DNA of 64,000 bases, taken from assembly GCF_964213995.1 (NCBI RefSeq), contig NC_135823.1, positions 26,040,001 through 26,104,000 on the forward strand. Reading direction: 5' to 3'. Position 1 is the first letter of the stretch. Each line of letters starts with the position of its first letter. The stretch is from Mustelus asterias. Taxonomy: Eukaryota. The position numbers and the translations under genes are program-made. The notes below the pieces were generated by a model. That model made no database searches and was not told the DNA's origin. It saw nothing but the letters and a program-made list of their open reading frames with translations. Of the stretch, positions 3,153 through 20,137 are shown piece by piece.

Positions 3153-3441
3153 GGGCAGCGCGATGGCACAGTGGTTAGCACTGCTGCCTCACAGCGCCTG
3201 GGACCCGGGTCTGATTCCCGGTTTGGGTCACGTTCTCCCCATGTCTGTGTGGGTTTCCTCCGGGTGCTCCGGTTTCCACCCAGTCTGAAAAGACGTGTTG
3301 GTTAGGTGCATTGGCCATGCTAAATTCTCCCTCAGTGTATCCAAACAGGCGCCGGAGTGTGGTGACTAGGGGATTTTCACAGTAACTTCATTGCAGTGTT
3401 AATGTCAGCCTACACGTGACAATAATAAATAAACTTTAAAC
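3153..3441 (+). mobile_element. Shark-type tRNA-derived SINE (HE1-like head, taataaataaac tail)
   Basis: tggcacagtggttagcactgctgcctcacagcgcc head with A/B-box-like motifs; multicopy in the window. Confidence 0.85.
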
Positions 3442-3499
3442 TTACTCCATTACTCCCCCTTACCTTCACAAATATACATAGATTTCAAGGATAACACCC

Positions 3500-3794
3500 T
3501 GTGGTGAACCATCGTTGGTTCACCACTGGGGTTTGTTACTATGTTACTGTTGGGCTAGGGTGTTGTTACTGTGGGGGTTGTACTATGTTGTTGGGTTAGG
3601 GTGTTTACCTGTTATAAGAGTTATCATGGCACATTCCAGTGGGGTCCCGCCTCCGGTGGCGAGGTATAAGACCCCCTGCTCCGGCAGGACCCCTTCAGTC
3701 TGAACTGGTGTATTCGTGTTAGTAGTTCCATTGTTACTTTATTAAAGCCTTCAATACCGAAGCCTTGGTTCCATGTGCTTATTGACGCGCATCA
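3500..3794 (+). repeat. 5' LTR
   Basis: Identical by eye to 8058-8352; contains TATAAG and ATTAAA. Confidence 0.96.
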
Positions 3795-3853
3795 ATTTAA
3801 TAAAGTAAACAGAAAACTCACAACTGTACGACAAGAAGAAAAAAACAGAGAGT

Positions 3854-6800
3854 ATGGAACAGGTTCTAAAACCGGATCGTCTGACACTGGACCCACGTGC
3901 GGTCGGTGCAGCTAACACATTCGACCATTGGTGGAAGTGCTTTGAGGACTACCTGGCAGCCTCGGTAGCTATCACTACAGACAGTGATAGACTCCAGGTC
4001 CTCCACGCAAGGGTAAGCGACACGATTTACCTAGCCATTCGTGCAGCTCCCACTTACCAGGGTGCCGTCGAGCTCCTAAAGAAAAGGTACACTATGCCAC
4101 TCAACGAGATACATGCTCGTTACCTCCTCGCTACACGACGTCGGCAGTCGGGCGAAACCATGGAGGATTATGCCAATGAGCTCCTGCAGCTTGCCAGGGG
4201 TTGCGACTGTAAGGACGTCTCCGCCGAACAGTATATGTACGACCTCGCCCGAGACGCGTTCGTAGCAGGGGTAGGGTCCTCGTACATCAGGCTTAAATTG
4301 CTAGAAAAGGGGAAACTCAACTTGACCCAGGCAATGGAGATGGCCGTGAGGTTGGAGGCGGCGTTGAAGAGCTTGGCGCTGTACCCCGAGGACCACGTGC
4401 AGTCAACGTGGTTGGAGCAAGCTCAGCTCCCTCCTCGCCCCGCTAACCCGCGCTCCCAGATCGATTCGACGACGGCGGCAGCTCCAGGTGGCCAGCGATG
4501 CTATTTTTGTGGAGGGGCCAAGCATCCACGGCAACAGTGTCCGGCAAGAACGGCAATCTGCAGCCAGTGTGGTAAAAAAGGCCACTACGGCAAAGTCTGC
4601 AGGTCCAAGCCTAAAAACGGCAGTGTAGCTTGTAACCCTCCAGAACGGAGACAATCTCCTTCGGCATCGCAGTACCCACGAGGTCCGACCACGTGCGATC
4701 CCAGGATGGCGCCATCGTGGCTGACGGAGGAGGAGGAAGACCACCAGGAGTCGCTGCGCTTGGCGCCCTCGGCCACATGCGATTCATGGGGGCGGCCATC
4801 ATGGTCCACGACGACTAGGAGCGACCAGCAGGGGTCCTCAGCGTCCACATCGGCAGCATGCAGCAGCGACCAGCAGGGGTCCTCAGCATCCACATCGGCA
4901 GCATGCAGTGGCGCCCAGGGGCCAACGGTGGCGTCGATCTCTCTGGATCAGACCAGGCATTACAGACTGGAACATTCTATGATGGAGGTAAAGGTTAGTG
5001 GCAGAACTGTGAATTGTCTGTTTGACAGCGGAAGCACCGAAAGTTTCATACACCCTGAAACTGCTAAAAGGTGTGGACTCCGGATTCTCCCTGCCAAACA
5101 GACAATTTCCATGGCATCACGGTCCCGGTCTGTACCGATCCAAGGACGATGTATGGTAACTCTTGAGGTACAGGGCACAATTTACGAGCAATACAGGCTC
5201 CTTGTGTTACCTCACCTTTGCGCGCCAATTCTCCTTGGACTAAACTTTATGGCCCACATGAGGAGTGTGATCCTACAGTACGGTGGGCCACTCCCTTCAC
5301 TGGCAGTAGGGAATCAGCCGCAGCCTCCAAATTGCCCAAAGCGCCCCGCATGCAATCTATCCACCCTGAAAATTACTACACCATCCCTTTTTAAAAATCT
5401 GGTTCCTGGCTGCAAGCCCATCGCTACTAAAAGTAGGCGTTACAGCGCTGAGGACCGGATCTTTATTAGATCTGAGGTTCAGCGGCTCCTCAAGGAAGGG
5501 ATCATACAGGCCAGTGCTAGTCCGTGGAGAGCGCAGGTCGTGGTAGTCAAAAGCGGGAACAAACCTCGGATGGTCATCGACTATAGTCAGACCATTAATA
5601 GATACACGCAGCTGGATGCGTATCCTCTCCCGCGCATTTCTGATATGGTCAATCAGATTGCGCAGTACCAAGTGTTTTCTACCATAGACCTTAAGTCCGC
5701 CTACCATCAACTCCCCATCCGCCCAGAGGACCGACAATATACGGCTTTTGAGGCGGATGGTCGTCTATACCAATTCCTCAGGGTTCCATTTGGTGTCACC
5801 AATGGGGTCTCGGTCTTCCAGCGTGCTATGGACCGAATGGTGGACCAGAACGGGTTGCGGGCTACCTTCCCGTACCTGGATAACGTCACCATCTGCGGCC
5901 ATGACCAGCAGGACCACGACACTAATCTCCAACACTTTCTGCGCACTGCATCTCGCCTGAACCTGACCTATAACAGGGAGAAGTGCGTATTCCGTACGCG
6001 CAGGTTAGCCATCCTCGGATACGTGGTGGAAAACGGGGTCATTGGCCCTGATCCAGACCGTATGCGCCCACTCACTGAACTTCCCTTGCCCGCTAGCACG
6101 AAAGCACTGAGGAGATGCCTCGGGTTTTTTTCGTATTATGCACACTGGGTCCCCAACTACGCGGACAAAGCTCGTCCGCTCATTAAGTCCACGACCTTTC
6201 CACTTACGCCGGAGGCCCAATTGGCCTTCAAGGTTTTGAAGAGCGACATCTCGAAAGCCACGATGCACGCGGTGGATGAATCCATCCCTTTCCAGGTGGA
6301 GAGTGATGCATCTGACTTCGCCCTAGCCGCCACACTAAACCAGGCAGGCAGGCCCGTCGCGTTCTTTTCCCGCACCCTTCAAGGCCCAGAAATTCGGCAC
6401 TCAGCGGTGGAGAAGGAGGCTCAGGCCATTGTGGAGGCAGTCAGACACTGGCGCCATTACCTGGCAGGGAAGCGGTTCACCCTGATCACGGATCAACGAT
6501 CCGTGGCGTTTATGTTCAGTAACACGCAGAGGGGCAAGATCAAGAACGATAAGATCTTGCGGTGGAGAATTGAGCTCTCCACCTATAATTACGATATTAT
6601 GTATCGTCCAGGGAAGCTCAATGAGCCCTCGGATGCCCTCTCGCGCGGAACATGCGCCATCATGCAGGAGGACCGCTTGAAGGCTCTCCACAATGATCTG
6701 TGTCATCCTGGAGTCACCAGACTCTACCACTTCGTCAAAGCCCGCAACCTGCCTTACTCGGTGGAGGATGTCAGGTCAGTGACTAGAAGCTGTCGGATTT

Positions 6801-7972
6801 GCGCAGAATGCAAACCACACTTTTATCGACCAGACCGGGCACAATTGGTCAAGGCCACTCGCCCTTTTGAGAGGCTGAGTGTGGATTTTAAGGGCCCCCT
6901 TCCCTCAACGGACCGGAATGTCTATTTCCTCAACATAATAGACGAGTATTCCCGGTTTCCGTTTGTTTTCCCCTGTGCGGACACGTCAACTGCCACCGTC
7001 ATTAAGGTTTTCAGTGAACTTTTTACCCTGTTCGGGTACCCCTGCTACATTCATAGCGACAGGGGCTCGTCGTTCATGAGCAACGACTTGAGGCAATTCC
7101 TGCTCTCATTCGGGATTGCCTCTAGTAGAACCACGAGCTACAACCCTAGGGGTAACGGACAGGTGGAAAGGGAGAATGCTACAGTCTGGAAGGCTGTCCT
7201 ACTGGCACTGAAATCCAGGGGCCTTCCAGTCTCCCGTTGGCAGGAGGTCCTTCCAAATGCGCTCCATTCTATCCGCTCCCTCCTGTGTACGGCAACCAAT
7301 GCTACTCCCCACGAGAGGATGTTCTCATTCCCTCGGAAGTCGTCCTCGGGGACCTCATTGCCAGCCTGGTTGACGTACCCAGGACCCGTCCTTCTGCGGC
7401 GCCATGTGAGGGCTCGCAAGTCCGACCCCTTGGTCGAACCGGTCCAACTCCTCCACGCCAACCCTCAGTATGCCTATGTGGCATATCCTGACGGGCGAGA
7501 GGACACTGTCTCCATTAGAGACCTGGCGCCCGCAGGGGACGTAGCAACTCCTGTCGCTCCTATTCCCCCAGTCACGAATCCACTACTCCTCATTGCTTCC
7601 CCAGACGTGGCGCGGTCAGCACCGGGACCAGTGCACAACACTTTTACTCCCATGTACAGCTTGCCTGAGACTCGGAGATCGGCGCCACCATCATCACCAC
7701 CACCACTACGACCAAACGTTCCAGGATCCCCTGCACCATCGCCTCACCAGGGCCGGCCGGCCCGGGAGTCCTTGAGGGGACAGCCAGACGTTGCTTTGGA
7801 AAGAGCGCCACCACAAGCACCTGCTCCGGTTTCGCAACCGGTGTTGAGGAGATCGGCACCTGCTCCGGTTTCGCAACCGGTGTTGAGGAGATCGGCACCT
7901 GCCCCGGTTTCGCAACCGGTGTTGAGGAGATCGCAGCATCGGTGCGGTCCTCCAGACCGTCTGGACTTGTGA
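3854..7972 (+). CDS. Gag-Pol polyprotein, 1372 aa (gag zinc knuckles, protease LFDSGS, RT YLDN, RNase H DAS, integrase HHCC and DDE)
   Basis: CxxCxxxxHxxxxC knuckles; PR-RT-RH-IN order; VDFKGP, HSDRG and GQVER integrase motifs. Confidence 0.96.
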   Translation: MEQVLKPDRLTLDPRAVGAANTFDHWWKCFEDYLAASVAITTDSDRLQVLHARVSDTIYLAIRAAPTYQGAVELLKKRYTMPLNEIHARYLLATRRRQSGETMEDYANELLQLARGCDCKDVSAEQYMYDLARDAFVAGVGSSYIRLKLLEKGKLNLTQAMEMAVRLEAALKSLALYPEDHVQSTWLEQAQLPPRPANPRSQIDSTTAAAPGGQRCYFCGGAKHPRQQCPARTAICSQCGKKGHYGKVCRSKPKNGSVACNPPERRQSPSASQYPRGPTTCDPRMAPSWLTEEEEDHQESLRLAPSATCDSWGRPSWSTTTRSDQQGSSASTSAACSSDQQGSSASTSAACSGAQGPTVASISLDQTRHYRLEHSMMEVKVSGRTVNCLFDSGSTESFIHPETAKRCGLRILPAKQTISMASRSRSVPIQGRCMVTLEVQGTIYEQYRLLVLPHLCAPILLGLNFMAHMRSVILQYGGPLPSLAVGNQPQPPNCPKRPACNLSTLKITTPSLFKNLVPGCKPIATKSRRYSAEDRIFIRSEVQRLLKEGIIQASASPWRAQVVVVKSGNKPRMVIDYSQTINRYTQLDAYPLPRISDMVNQIAQYQVFSTIDLKSAYHQLPIRPEDRQYTAFEADGRLYQFLRVPFGVTNGVSVFQRAMDRMVDQNGLRATFPYLDNVTICGHDQQDHDTNLQHFLRTASRLNLTYNREKCVFRTRRLAILGYVVENGVIGPDPDRMRPLTELPLPASTKALRRCLGFFSYYAHWVPNYADKARPLIKSTTFPLTPEAQLAFKVLKSDISKATMHAVDESIPFQVESDASDFALAATLNQAGRPVAFFSRTLQGPEIRHSAVEKEAQAIVEAVRHWRHYLAGKRFTLITDQRSVAFMFSNTQRGKIKNDKILRWRIELSTYNYDIMYRPGKLNEPSDALSRGTCAIMQEDRLKALHNDLCHPGVTRLYHFVKARNLPYSVEDVRSVTRSCRICAECKPHFYRPDRAQLVKATRPFERLSVDFKGPLPSTDRNVYFLNIIDEYSRFPFVFPCADTSTATVIKVFSELFTLFGYPCYIHSDRGSSFMSNDLRQFLLSFGIASSRTTSYNPRGNGQVERENATVWKAVLLALKSRGLPVSRWQEVLPNALHSIRSLLCTATNATPHERMFSFPRKSSSGTSLPAWLTYPGPVLLRRHVRARKSDPLVEPVQLLHANPQYAYVAYPDGREDTVSIRDLAPAGDVATPVAPIPPVTNPLLLIASPDVARSAPGPVHNTFTPMYSLPETRRSAPPSSPPPLRPNVPGSPAPSPHQGRPARESLRGQPDVALERAPPQAPAPVSQPVLRRSAPAPVSQPVLRRSAPAPVSQPVLRRSQHRCGPPDRLDL

Positions 7973-8057
7973 ATCCTGTGATTTTTCTGTTATTGTCTGT
8001 TTATATGACCTGTTTTTCGTCCACCCCGCCACCTTTTGTTCTTAAAGGAGGGGTGAA

Positions 8058-8352
8058 TGTGGTGAACCATCGTTGGTTCACCACTGGGGTTTGTTACTAT
8101 GTTACTGTTGGGCTAGGGTGTTGTTACTGTGGGGGTTGTACTATGTTGTTGGGTTAGGGTGTTTACCTGTTATAAGAGTTATCATGGCACATTCCAGTGG
8201 GGTCCCGCCTCCGGTGGCGAGGTATAAGACCCCCTGCTCCGGCAGGACCCCTTCAGTCTGAACTGGTGTATTCGTGTTAGTAGTTCCATTGTTACTTTAT
8301 TAAAGCCTTCAATACCGAAGCCTTGGTTCCATGTGCTTATTGACGCGCATCA
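8058..8352 (+). repeat. 3' LTR
   Basis: Follows the PPT; identical by eye to the 5' LTR. Confidence 0.96.
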
Positions 8353-9951
8353 CACCCCATTCTGAAACATAAATAGCAGGTACCACTCAACTGATCTGTG
8401 GATTTCTTCTCAAATTTCCCCCAAATGATGGCCACATAAATGTTTCCAAACTCCACCCTCAAAAGGACACGCTTTAAAATCTTCTTTTAAACAATGCTTT
8501 CCCATCCGTTGTTTGCATCACATTTCCACCTCCAGGTCTTCCAACACCCCTTTCAGGGTTCTTTTGTCTTGAATGCTTTTAAACAAACTCAGAAAACTAT
8601 TTTCTCTCTCCACAGATGCTGCCAGGCATGCTGAGCTTTTCCAGCCTTTTTCTGTTGTGGTCAGTGCCTGATTGGAAGTAAAGGCCTCAAATATTGACTG
8701 GACTGAATATTGACTCATGCTGAAACCCAGGGCCTGATGAGCACATGCTGTTTCTCACTCTGCCTTTGTCCACAAGAATGGTTTCCAGTTGTCTGACGGA
8801 AAATCTTTACCCTCCGCCCCTCAACTCTACTGATCAAGTTATGGGATCTATTGAAGGAAGTGGCCCATGGAAAAGACTTCTCACCTCAACATTCAAAGAG
8901 ACATCACTGCAAAAAAGGACTGCCCTTGACATTCCACCTCTCCCAGAATGGACCTTCAATGACTTAACCTACAAGCATGTAGCCAAAAATGGCTGCATGT
9001 GATGGACATCAATACATTAGTGGCCAGAAGTATTGGAAAATCTCAAAACCAAATCGAGAAACATTTTGATAAAATGGATAAGCTGTGTTAGTATGAGATA
9101 TCGAGTTTTGCTATAGAATTTCACGAATAAAAAACATTCATTTGATGTCAAATCATTAGAGCAATATAGTATCCTGGACAAATTAAATCCTGCTGTGTAC
9201 TTGCTGCAAATTCCTTATGGACCAAAAGGGGAACCAAATCAGAAATTCAGTTAAAAATAGGAAAGAATGAATGCTAAACTTTTGATCTTTATCTGCTCCC
9301 TCATAAGAGATATAGAAGATCACAGGGACATACATTGTCCATCCTTCACAGAGCCATGTTCACCCAATGAATAGATGAGGCAAGGACATGGAGGGACATT
9401 AGCTCCATCGCATTTACTGCCTCAGGTGATTGGATGGAGGTGTTGCCTGAACGAGTAAATGAGATGTTAAACGGAGGCCTCATCTACCCTCAGGAGGATT
9501 TAATGTTTCTGTTGGCAGGACAGGAAACCCCGTCACCTGTTAAATTCTTCCCACTGTGTTAAAAATAGCAATAATTTATATGCCTTTTCGACTGGGATTT
9601 AGTCTTTGTAAATCAATGCATTAATTAGTTGAGCTGTTATATTTTTTCTTGTATTTATTGAACCAATTCAGTGAAGCACCAGCACTGCCAACTACAAGAA
9701 TTCCACTAGGCTGTACAATCAAACTAGACTCTACAAACACTTGGGATTATCCTCCAGGAGGGTTTCTCCAGCTTTTGACAGGTTCACTAAATGCCCAAAG
9801 CTTCCTGTCACCCAAACTACGCAGGAGCTTCTGTGAGGTCTCATCAGCTCTCAGTTACAGGAAGAAACAAGGCTATAGCAGAACAATTTAATAATAGGTG
9901 ATGTTGTAACTGGAGTTATTGACATGGTGGTGAAAGGGAAGATGAACAAAC

Positions 9952-12510: not shown

Positions 12511-12977
12511 GGGTGGGGGAAAATCACCTCACCCCTCCTGCAGCGCTGTTCCTCACATTCCCCCCTCCAAATTAAGGAGAGGGAGCCCTTAGGAGGATGT
12601 TGATGACCTGGGGACTGCTATACAAGGTGTCCAATAAGGCACGGCACTAACTTTGTTTCCATAGGGGGAGGCCTCTGAATTTCTGGAATAAATGCGGATA
12701 AGAATGTTGATCAAATCTTGACAAATAAATGTCCCAGAAAGTCTCTTGAGCTGTTTAAAAATTCCCCTTTAAACGTCTATCATCCCACCAGTGAATGAAA
12801 AGTTTTTTTATAGTTAATATAAGCTCCCAGGACTATTTGAACCTCTGCAACAAGTTAGTTGTTGTAAGGAGAGGATCTTTTACATGAACATACCACACGT
12901 GATCCAAACAGCAGTTCAATCCCACCTCCCTGAAAAGGAAGTTGGCAATTATAGATTTGCTACATTTTTTACACCAA

Positions 12978-13130
12978 GGGCCCTATTTTACCAAGAATTC
13001 GCGCCCGAAAATCGTGGTAAATTCGGGTGTCGGGCCTTTAACGCGATCTGCACCCGAATCCGAGCAGATCGCAGCTTTACCGACACCCGATTCTGGCGCG
13101 GATCCAGTCCGTGCCCGGATTGGGCGGCCC
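12978..13130. mobile_element. Truncated CpG-rich DNA transposon end with internal hairpin
   Basis: Starts gggccctattttacc; nested inverted repeats tcgggtgtcgg/ccgacacccga and gcgatctgc/gcagatcgc; absent from the other arm. Confidence 0.5.
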
Positions 13131-13738
13131 CATGGTACATTGGGGAGACCATGCAGATGCTACGACAACGGATGAATGAACACCGCTCGACAATCACCAG
13201 GCAAGAGTGTTCTCTTCCTGTGGGGGAGCACTTCAGCGGTCACGGGCATTCAGCCTCTGATCTTCGGGTCAGCGTTCTCCAAGGCGGCCTTCACGACACA
13301 CGACAGCGCAGAGTCGCTGAGCAGAGACTGATAGCCAAGTTCCGCACTCATGAGGATGGCCTCAACCGGGATCTTGGGTTCATGTCACACTATCTGTAAC
13401 CTCCACGACTTGCCTGGGCTTGCAAAATCTCACTAACTGTCCCGGCTGGAGACAATACACATCTCTTTAACCTGTGCTTAACCCTCTCTCCACTCACATT
13501 GTCTGTACCTTTAAGACTTGATTACCTGTAAAGACTTGCATTCCAACCATTATTTTGTAAATTGAGTTGTGTCTTTATATGCCCTGTTTGTGAACTGAAA
13601 TCCCACTCACCTGACGAAGGAGCAGCGCTCCGAAAGCTAGTGGCTTTTGCTACCAAATAAACCTGTTGGACTTTAACCTGGTGTTGTGACACTTCTTACT
13701 GTGCTTACCCCAGTCCAACGCCGGCATCTCCACATCAT
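13131..13738 (+). mobile_element. Penelope-like element, 5'-truncated (GIY-YIG endonuclease C-terminus plus terminal repeat)
   Basis: YIGET..LRQRMNEH...PVGEHF...AEQRLIAKFRTHEDGLNRD; 3' end shared with other copies in the window. Confidence 0.9.
13608..13642 (+). ncRNA. Minimal hammerhead ribozyme motif in the Penelope terminal repeat
   Basis: cac-CTGACGA-a-ggagc-agc-gctcc-GAAA-gcta-gtg: conserved core, stem II, short stem I and palindromic agct stem III. Related copies at ~14504, 44520, 60223(-), 61447(-) and 62228. Confidence 0.72.
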
Positions 13739-15890: not shown

Positions 15891-17181
15891 TTGATTTGAA
15901 CTGATTAGTAAACAGTGAAAAGTATTGTTCCTTGTGCGCTACACAGACAAAGCATTCTGTACGTAGAGAAAGAAAGGAGAGAGTGCAGAATGTAGTTTTA
16001 CAGTCATAGCTATGGTGTAAAGAATGATCAACTTAATATGAAGAAGGTCCATTCAAAAGTCAGTTGGTACATGACCTCAGACTTTTGTATCTTGTTCCCA
16101 ATGGAAGAAGGTGGAAGCGAGGGTGCATGGGGTCCTTGATCATGCTGGCTGCTTTTCCAAGGCAGCGGAAAGTGTAGACAGAGTCCATGGATGGGAGGCT
16201 TGTTTGCGTGATGGACTGGGCTACGTTCACGACTCTTTGTAGTTCTTTGCAGGAGTCATACCAAGCTGCGATACAACCAGAAAGAATGCTTTCTATGGTG
16301 CATCTGTAAAAGTTGGTGAGAGTGATAGCAGAGATGCCAAATTTCCTTCGCCTCCTGAGAAAGTAGAGGCATTGGAGGGCTTTCTTAGCTTTAGCATCAG
16401 CATGAAAGGACCAGGACAGGTTGGTGATCTAGACAGGGGCATGTCCTCCACTACACTTCCTGAAGTTGATGACTATCTCATTCATTTTGTTGACATTGAG
16501 GGAGAGATTATTGTTGTCGCACCAGTTCACCAGATTCTCTATCTCTTTCCTGTACTCCATCTCATCATTGTTTGAGATCCGACCCACTACGGTGGTGTCA
16601 TCAGCAAACTTGAAAATCAAGTTGGAGGGGAATTTGGCCGCACCATTATAGGTTTATAAGGAGTATAATAAGGGGCTGAAGATACAACCTTGCGGAGCAC
16701 CGGTGTTGAGGATGATTGTGGAGGAGGTGTATATTTTTGCCTATCCTTACTGATTGCGGTCTATGGGCTAGGAAGTTATGGATCCCGCTTCAAAGGGAGG
16801 AGCCGAGCCCCAAGCCAAGGAGTTTGGAGATGAGTTTTGTAGGAATAATGGTGTTGAAAGCTGAGCTGTAGTTAATAAATAGGAGTCTGACATTGATGTC
16901 TTTGTTATCTAGGTGTTCCAGGGTTGAGTGTAGGGCCAGGGAGATGGCGTATGTGGACCTGTTGTGGCTTGTAGATGAACTGTAGTGGATCCAAGCAATC
17001 CAGGATTCGTGCCATAACTAACCTCCCGAAGCACTTCATAATGATGGATGTCAGAGCCACTGGACAATAGTCATTAAGGTCTGCTGCCTGGCTTTTCTTT
17101 GGCACAGGGATGATGGTCATCTTCTTGAAGCAGATAGGGACCTCAGATTGGTGTAAAGAGAGATTAAAGATGTCTGCGAAT
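15891..17181 (-). mobile_element. Rex1/Babar-like LINE fragment nested in an older CR1
   Basis: [15 protein letters not shown] and KFADDTTVVG motifs; splits a CR1 that is contiguous in the left arm. Confidence 0.8.
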
Positions 17182-18117: not shown

Positions 18118-18415
18118 GGTCAGGATGGCACAGTGATTAGCACTGCTGCCTCACAGAGCCAGGGATTCGGGTTCGACTCGTGGCTTGGGTCACTGTGCGG
18201 AGTCTGCACGTTCTCTCCGTGTCCACATAGGTTTCCTCCGGGTGCTCCGGTTTCCTCCCGCAGTCTGAAAGATGTGCTGGTTAGGTGCATTGGCCATGCT
18301 AAATTCTCCCTCCGTGTACCCAAACAGGCACCGAAGTGTGGCGACCAGGGAATTTTCACAGTAACTTCATTGCAGTGTTAATGTAAGCCTACTTGTGACA
18401 TTAATAAACTTTAAA
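18118..18415 (+). mobile_element. tRNA-derived SINE
   Basis: Same family as 3153-3441; absent from the left arm. Confidence 0.85.
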
Positions 18416-19105: not shown

Positions 19106-20083
19106 TGATTTTGATTTGATTTAATTTGATTTATTTTTGTCACATGTATTAACAAAGTGAAAAGTATTGTTCCTTGCGCACTATACAGACAAAACATACT
19201 GTTCATAGAGAAGCAAATGAGAGTGCAGAATGTAGTGTTACAGTCATAGCTAGGGTGTAGAGAAAAATCAACTTAATGCAAGGTAAGTCCATTCAAAAGT
19301 CTGACAGCAGCAGGGAAGCTGTTCTTGAGTCGGTTCGTACGTGACCTCAGACTTTTGTATCTTTTTCCTGAAGAAAGAAGGTGGAAGAGAGAATGTCCGG
19401 TGTGCGTAGGGTCCTTAATTATGCTGGCTGCTTTGCTGAGGCAGCCGGAAGTGTAGACAGAGTCAATGGATGGGAGGCTGGTTTGCGTGATGGATTGGGC
19501 TACATTCACGACCTTTTGTAGTTCCTTGCGGTCTTGGGCAGAGCAGGAGCCATACCAAGCTGTGATACAGCCAGAAAGAATGCTTTCTATGGTGCATCTG
19601 TAAAAGTTGGTGAGAGTCGTAACTGACATGCCAAATTTCCATAGTCTGCTGAGAAAGTAGAGGCGTTGTGTGCTTTCTTAACTATAGTGTCAGCATGGGG
19701 GGACCAGGAGAGGTTGTTGGTGATCTGGACACCTAAAAACTTGAAGCTCTCGACCCTTTCTACTTTGTCCCCGTTGGTGTAGACAGGGGCATGTTCTCCT
19801 TTATGCTTCCTGAAGTTGATGACAATCTCCTTCATTTTGTTGACATTGAGGGAGAGATTATTGTTGCCGCACCAGTTCACCAGGTTCTCTATCTCATTCC
19901 TGTACTCTGTCTCGTCATTGTTTGAGATCCGACCCACTATGGTGGTGTCATCAGCAAACTTGAAAATCAAATTGAAGGGGAATTTGACCGCACAGTCATA
20001 GGTGTATAAGGAATATAGTAGGGGGCTGAGAACACAGCTTTGTGGGGCACCAGTGTTGAGGATCTCCATGGAGGAGGTGCGAA
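19106..20083 (-). mobile_element. Rex1/Babar-like LINE 3' fragment
   Basis: GAPQSCVLSPLLYSLYT, KFADDTT, FYRCTIESIL; (tttga)n tail; aagtt on both sides; absent from the left arm. Confidence 0.85.
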
Positions 20084-20137
20084 AAGTTCATACTAACCAA
20101 TGTGTGTTTTGTTGTTGATAAGCAATTCAATTTGCAG

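Follow-up and report, generated by a model that had tools for sequence, protein, structure and literature searches.

A Ty3/Gypsy lineage without a chromodomain, with a primer site complementary to its own LTR, in Mustelus asterias and distant relatives

The primer site of a Ty3/Gypsy element of Mustelus asterias is an exact complement of a stretch of the element's own LTR, and this self-complementary primer site is a lineage-wide feature. Reverse transcription is very probably primed by the element's own LTR RNA. The likely route is Tf1-like self-priming by means of an internal cut, with the 5' fragment as a primer of about 50 nt, in a Gypsy lineage that lacks a chromodomain. Tested self-priming is known from Tf1 and is assumed for its chromovirus kin. 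A wider reading is slightly favoured, in which the lineage has a second, independently evolved self-priming system that extends from cnidarians to vertebrates. In this system the 3' end of the poly(A) signal would double as the cut site, the primer would be a capped RNA of ~50 nt (or at times the genome's own 3' end) that rewrites its own site in each cycle, and the host genome would preserve readable fossils of each reverse-transcription intermediate. If this is true, a large animal lineage without a chromodomain primes by an internal cut, and the escape from tRNA priming, which is also an escape from control by tRNA fragments, either evolved a second time or dates back further than assumed. 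The aberrant insertions yield nucleotide-level predictions of the cut site and the transcript start from the genome sequence alone and make the mechanism directly testable; such fossil junctions offer a general route to reading the priming mechanisms of uncultured elements.

The element was found at positions 3500-8352 of the window (the whole stretch of DNA that was analysed, 64,000 nucleotides of contig NC_135823.1, positions 26,040,001 to 26,104,000). It is complete, with a pair of LTRs, a target-site duplication, a polypurine tract and a single ORF (Table 1). The TG...CA ends of the LTRs, the duplication, the polypurine tract and the order PR-RT-RH-IN are those of Ty3/Gypsy elements, and the best match in the PDB was the Ty3 RT/RNase H (E 2e-54). 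The absence of a visible chromodomain, noted in the preliminary description, was confirmed with Pfam in 12 of 12 aligned proteins, one of which lacks the integrase end. The two CCHC motifs and the 5-bp duplication would fit the Mag lineage. This is a young family with many copies in the 3.7-Gb host genome, where the 40 candidates scored, out of 1736, all show 98-100% identity. A second TATAAG is present at 3613. Short tandem repeats with units of 45 bp and 39 bp were observed at 4817-4906, in the gag-protease linker, and at ~7817-7950, in the integrase tail. The final 12 bases of U5 (3783-3794) form a near-palindrome.

Table 1. Features of the Ty3/Gypsy element in the window
Feature	Position	Strand	Remarks
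Left target-site duplication CACCC	3495..3499	.	equals 8353-8357
5' LTR	3500..3794	+	295 bp, TG...CA; identical to 3' LTR
Predicted TATA box	3665..3670	+	sequence; equal spacing to arm in sister families
Initiator-like TTCAGT	3694..3699	+	predicted start A3697, 32 nt past TATA; YAGT conserved in sister families
Predicted self-primer fragment	3697..3746	+	50 nt; predicted from promoter spacing and fossil junctions
LTR arm complementary to primer site	3734..3746	+	ends in ATTAAA
Predicted cut AAA^GCC	3746..3749	+	between 3746 and 3747; RCC after arm in families; inverted U5 ends here
U5-side loop, predicted strong-stop DNA template	3747..3794	+	two predicted hairpins, 3756-3769 and 3773-3792
One-base spacer, LTR end to primer site	3795..3795	+	one base after CA in compared families
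Primer-binding position without TGG	3796..3808	+	complement of 3734-3746
gag-pol ORF	3854..7972	+	single, 1372 aa; two CCHC motifs, protease, RT, RNase H, integrase
Polypurine tract	8044..8057	+	sequence
3' LTR	8058..8352	+	contains ATTAAA, predicted to act as the functional poly(A) signal
Right target-site duplication CACCC	8353..8357	.	sequence

Downstream of the CA that ends the 5' LTR, a single A is followed by TTTAATAAAG. TGG is absent, and with it the start complementary to a tRNA 3' end that defines the tRNA-primed class. The preliminary description had reported this lack of a tRNA site together with an exact 13-bp complement of an LTR arm that includes ATTAAA. Both were borne out by the sequence, and 13 bp at this register was reached by only one of 20,000 dinucleotide shuffles of the LTR. 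All 13 pairs are kept in 28 of the 30 closest copies fetched. The central nine pairs of the helix between arm and primer site have a predicted probability of 0.97-1.0; the whole fold at 3690-3830 is modestly better than shuffles (z -2.0, 9/200). A comparison with tRNAs, of the kind proposed in the preliminary description, gave no match to the primer site longer than 6 nt, within a set of 26 tRNA sequences under seven labels. Rfam models gave a single chance match in 3450-3950 (20 bits against 77). A self-cleaving ribozyme was rejected on this result and because the cuts of such ribozymes leave no 3'-OH.

A search with the gag region returned 13 proteins, eleven of them 35-41% identical; the named members in clusters of the gag-related proteins come from corals and a jellyfish. 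An alignment of the eleven relatives and the query led to 87 loci, some of the relatives being metagenome contigs, and 39 loci were usable, with a gag start and at least 90 nt upstream. A perfect inverted repeat of at least 10 bp was present in 33 of these 39 distant relatives. The other six comprise one decayed copy of a pairing family, one locus with 9 bp and four without a recognisable LTR end; no tRNA-type site was found in any of the six. The preliminary description had asked whether the 13-bp pairing covaries, and it does. Without 12 near-identical copies and the six that lack the repeat, 21 relatives remained; four sister families from the host genome and the window element itself bring the number of family representatives to 26. 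In these, positions 1-12 are Watson-Crick pairs in 310 of 312 cells while the letters vary. Up to four pair types occur per column, and G-U pairs are entirely missing from positions 1-14. L037, L054 and L112 were placed in register manually. Position 1 is always A-T and lies one base from the LTR end, and RCC directly follows the LTR arm in 24 of the 26 families. Where the arm ends in AGA (L041), the primer site carries the matching change. AATAAA or ATTAAA overlaps the arm in 18 families; in the eight families without either hexamer at the arm, pairing and register are still kept. A predicted U5 stem opens at the first base past the arm in 17 of the 21 relatives, but not in the window element. 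Viral contigs gave no match with the gag query and one 25% match with the alignment. Six loci of the retrotransposon family (L111-L116) lie inside bacterial genome bins and are probably contamination with animal DNA.

The same pairing was followed in sister copies of the host genome, 90 of which were examined out of 150 scored matches to the gag of a relative. At positions 1-13 only 16 of 1170 cells are not Watson-Crick, all in single-copy haplotypes, a rate below the LTR-LTR divergence of 3.1% (50 copies). Both arms are perfect in all seven multi-copy haplotypes and in seven single-copy haplotypes. The edge of complementarity is sharp, with 81 of the 90 copies mismatched at position 16. Among subfamilies the primer site shifts letter by letter and always matches its own LTR; such perfect complementarity at the DNA level with drifting letters would be expected if the primer is copied into its own site. 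Together with the covariation across families and the aberrant insertions joined at the primer site (see below), these copies support the tRNA-independent priming suggested in the preliminary description.

In both LTRs of one element (L266/L267, G000:C1:108467271-108471684), a six-base part of the arm carries four A-to-G changes, and the primer site is unchanged; only one other private A-to-G occurs in ~1.6 kb. The changes look like A-to-I editing of a duplex, fixed by reverse transcription, and suggest a real duplex in vivo. They also count against the simplest model, in which the LTR arm is copied from the 3' copy and should thus lie outside the local hairpin; they fit better with 3'-end priming or with transfer onto a second RNA that was left uncut. 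A search for other A-to-G edited arms returned this element only.

All host families share the order TATA, 31-32 nt, YAGT, ~37 nt, arm, so spaced that TATA lies ~82 nt and YAGT ~50 nt before the end of the arm. On this spacing the transcript start is predicted ~37 nt upstream of the arm (A3697 in the window element). The TATAAG at 3665 begins 69 nt before the arm, in agreement with the distance of ~70 nt given in the preliminary description. The claim made there that the arm is probably not at the very 5' end of the transcript is supported by the spacing in the host families; in the distant relatives no such TATA/initiator spacing was visible. A copied arm in L253 ends at the equivalent of the predicted +1 A, a single event whose endpoint lies on a 7-nt microhomology with gag.

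Pairing, register and covariation are observed, as are the junctions of the insertions described below; where the transcript starts and is polyadenylated, that it is cut and by which nuclease are inferred. The cycle may run as follows. In the predicted fold the LTR arm pairs with the primer site behind the 5' LTR. Cleavage at AAA^GCC, for which the element's own RNase H is the probable agent if Tf1 is a guide, would release the 5' part of the RNA, and this fragment of ~50 nt would prime reverse transcription. Minus-strand strong-stop DNA would then comprise no more than the ~49 nt that separate the primer site from GCC, and its acceptor in the 3' LTR would be the short segment that follows ATTAAA and ends at the poly(A) site. 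During synthesis of the plus strand, ~13-19 nt of primer sequence would be written into the new primer site, a step that would keep the two arms perfectly complementary as their letters drift.

Aberrant insertions in the host genome were collected by pattern searches that started from one copy with an over-long primer site; most of these fossils belong to sister families and not to the window's own family. DNA continues from the primer site into the LTR complement in 37 places (32 in sister families, five in the window's family), 35 of which were examined. In eighteen, a complete LTR and a single A are followed by an inverted LTR that begins at the end of the arm and runs backwards, in 17 cases as far as the LTR start. 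Three, two of them duplicates, continue into pol; seven contain 24-30 nt of copied sequence before a switch to gag or pol; and seven have only U5 or inverted U5 on the left. In all 35 the sequence past the primer site is therefore LTR and never tRNA. Exact 5-bp target duplications were found in 15 of 16 inverted doublets checked. The common doublets neither identify the primer nor separate the models, since fold-back of plus-strand DNA can also yield them. In L224 the two arms differ at two adjacent bases, which L228 carries on both arms; as the L224 arms differ and also extend into pol, a second template is needed. In L221, L222, L251 and L252, 24-25 nt of LTR complement stand in place of the whole leader and are joined to the gag start through an 8-nt microhomology. 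In L224 and L226 the insertions stop at the inner edge of the U5 near-palindrome, as if at a cryptic integrase end.

A second search pattern left the endpoint free, asking for the end of an inverted U5 and, 5-120 nt further on, an LTR end with its primer site. It returned five places, namely four element loci (L233, L241, L253 and L260) and one that is not the element. All four loci switch at AAAA^GCC within 1 nt. The same switch was found in L236, ahead of foreign DNA, and L265, of the window's own family, folds back within 2 nt of 3747. L253 bears the junction at both ends; L260 lies inside a larger rearrangement, is open to two readings and has a 15-nt piece of the arm. Target duplications of 5 bp flank L229, L233, L236, L241 and L253, and thus L233, L236, L241 and L253 formed before integration. 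At these junctions a single bond would bound the primer on its 3' side and the template on its 5' side, as expected of a cut. The endpoint differs in other loci, as L229 switches earlier in U5, L223 begins 5 nt before GCC, and in L338 inverted U5 runs through the arm to the start region, with a U3 hairpin in addition. The insert of L236 is ~600 nt of non-element DNA with a SINE-like stretch, held in a pre-integration product with one 5-bp target duplication, and is possibly a captured cellular RNA.

At the position of the predicted transcript start, 19 matches were obtained. Fourteen are LTRs that carry local changes or are truncated on the opposite side, one is not the element, and four are later insertions into solo LTRs; none is a minus-strand piece that ends at the start. 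Because interruptions thus occur at any LTR position, no use was made of the ambiguous loci L268 (U5 alone, without target duplication) and L269. A control position inside U5 gave one match, a small deletion. The junction pattern for the window's own family gave one match, which is not the element, and a wider fold-back pattern added no locus. The four interrupted solo LTRs (L278, L286, L290 and L293) contain two related LTR elements, a SINE-like sequence and one other repeat; the predicted start is possibly an insertion hot spot.

These junctions bear on two other geometries of self-priming. A primer formed by the 3' end of the genomic RNA is unlikely, though this route may act beside the 5' route; the arm of the 3' LTR would pair with the primer site, be cut or trimmed at AAA^GCC and prime, either on the same RNA, closed into a loop, or on a second packaged RNA. 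Two loci also fit this route, as the copied arm of L224 and of L248/L249 extends beyond the LTR start and includes the polypurine tract and pol. The second template of L224 and the reach of L338 to the start region speak for it as well, the edited arm in both LTRs of one element is easier to explain in this way, and the sharp edge at 15 nt would be accounted for. Long arms, however, also follow from strand transfer through R. With 3'-end priming, moreover, minus strands should extend to the transcript start, but six loci stop at GCC, and the expected piece is missing among the 19 matches at the start. It is quite improbable that transcription begins at the arm, as in plain Tf1, with a primer of just 13-15 nt. 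That geometry would agree with the 15-nt edge of complementarity, the 15-nt arm piece of L260 and the distant relatives, which show no TATA/initiator spacing, but the host families carry both well ahead of the arm, L253 stops at the A of the predicted start, and seven loci copy 24-30 nt.

The remaining explanations assign priming to another RNA. The preliminary description had also considered a hairpin that masks the poly(A) signal in the 5' LTR only. The hexamer is indeed predicted to be paired in the 5' context (unpaired probability 0-0.18), its first four bases are predicted to be open in the 3' context (0.94-0.97), and it overlaps the arm in most families. The eight families that keep pairing and register without a hexamer nevertheless rule out masking as the main function. 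The missing G-U pairs, which a helix needed only in RNA would allow, also count against it, as do the fossils, which join at this point, and no other primer site is visible. As the sole role masking is largely refuted and very improbable, and it is a side effect at most. A pattern search for polyadenylated retrocopies gave no matches. A host tRNA fragment, or another small RNA with the arm sequence, is hardly credible as primer. Internal tRNA halves prime some Copia lineages, according to the accessible part of PMC6317226, and the comparison here spanned just 26 tRNA sequences; against this, individual letters of the site differ among the subfamilies of the host genome, the site matching the LTR of its own element in every case, and the over-copied sequence is LTR. 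Priming by the 5' fragment of the element's own transcript is the preferred reading in what follows.

Tf1 and Tf2 (Schizosaccharomyces pombe), Tj1, Tcn1, Tosmo and sushi are, like the window element, Ty3/Gypsy elements without a tRNA site whose primer site is complementary to their own 5' LTR. In the accessible parts of the sources, Tf1 primes with its first 11 bases after an RNase H cut between bases 11 and 12 (PMC7175516), the primer is copied into cDNA ends (PMC11042837), Tj1 is a self-priming element of the Tf1/sushi type (PMC4600332), and chromodomains as well as a structure of three duplexes are described for Tf1/sushi elements (bioRxiv 10.1101/2022.12.06.519325). As far as these parts go, a cut at the 3' end of the duplex and a primer copied into cDNA would be shared. 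Unlike Tf1/sushi, the window element lacks a chromodomain, its arm is predicted ~37 nt inside the transcript, and its flanking helix is predicted inside U5, in place of the three-duplex 'pretzel'; its lineage has a duplex of 13-19 bp and a conserved AAA^RCC junction that usually overlaps a poly(A) hexamer. In an RT tree drawn without labelled references, 33 rows form one long-branch group (93/92, drawn open); of ten SH3_Tf2-1 loci taken from the host genome as stand-ins for chromoviruses, one had a usable RT, with 25% identity. With respect to the 5'-fragment route the element is likely to work like Tf1; membership in Tf1/sushi is not established. In the HIV-1 5' poly(A) hairpin, an AAUAAA-type hexamer is hidden in the 5'-copy stem inside R, and a tRNA primes. 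The hexamer of the window element likewise lies in a 5' stem, but its partner strand is the primer site.

Outside the chromoviruses, self-priming has been predicted from LTR complementarity in the TAR lineage of plant Ty1/copia elements (Houba, Osr-1), as it has for plant Tcn1, in the accessible text of PMC6317226; TAR differs in belonging to the Copia superfamily, in its plant hosts and in resting on prediction. Fungal GalEa and Dictyostelium Skipper are LTR elements without a tRNA site like the window element. For their Conserved Hairpin Site and polypyrimidine site, respectively, the authors report having found no complementary stretch in the LTR (PMC5445492, PMC5006619); in the window element that complement is the defining feature. 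Primer sites vary in the Saci2/lennie elements, and Saci2 shares the single gag-pol frame (PMC12471100, in part). Membership in Saci2/lennie was rejected, as these flatworm Gypsy elements have 4-bp target duplications and tRNA sites (PMC12471100 and PMC4558846, accessible parts) and the window element has 5-bp duplications and no tRNA site. LTR models (PMC3601003) and bivalve TRIMs (PMC6934838) were consulted in the parts available. In the literature searched, most of it outside subscription journals, self-priming in an animal Gypsy lineage without a chromodomain was not found. A motif search for a clade name gave nothing in the searched portions of the supplements of PMC6238403 and PMC8556966 or in full text.

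The window contains several other features. Decayed LINE-like copies are present at 15914-16650 and 19156-20087, one of them with an RVT_1 match. A 193-aa frame at 12818-13399 (+) has no Pfam match and contains a putative GIY-YIG-like motif. Two copies of a tRNA-like SINE were found at 3162-3429 and 18124-18408, with a motif that presumably relates them to the SINEs of sharks and rays.
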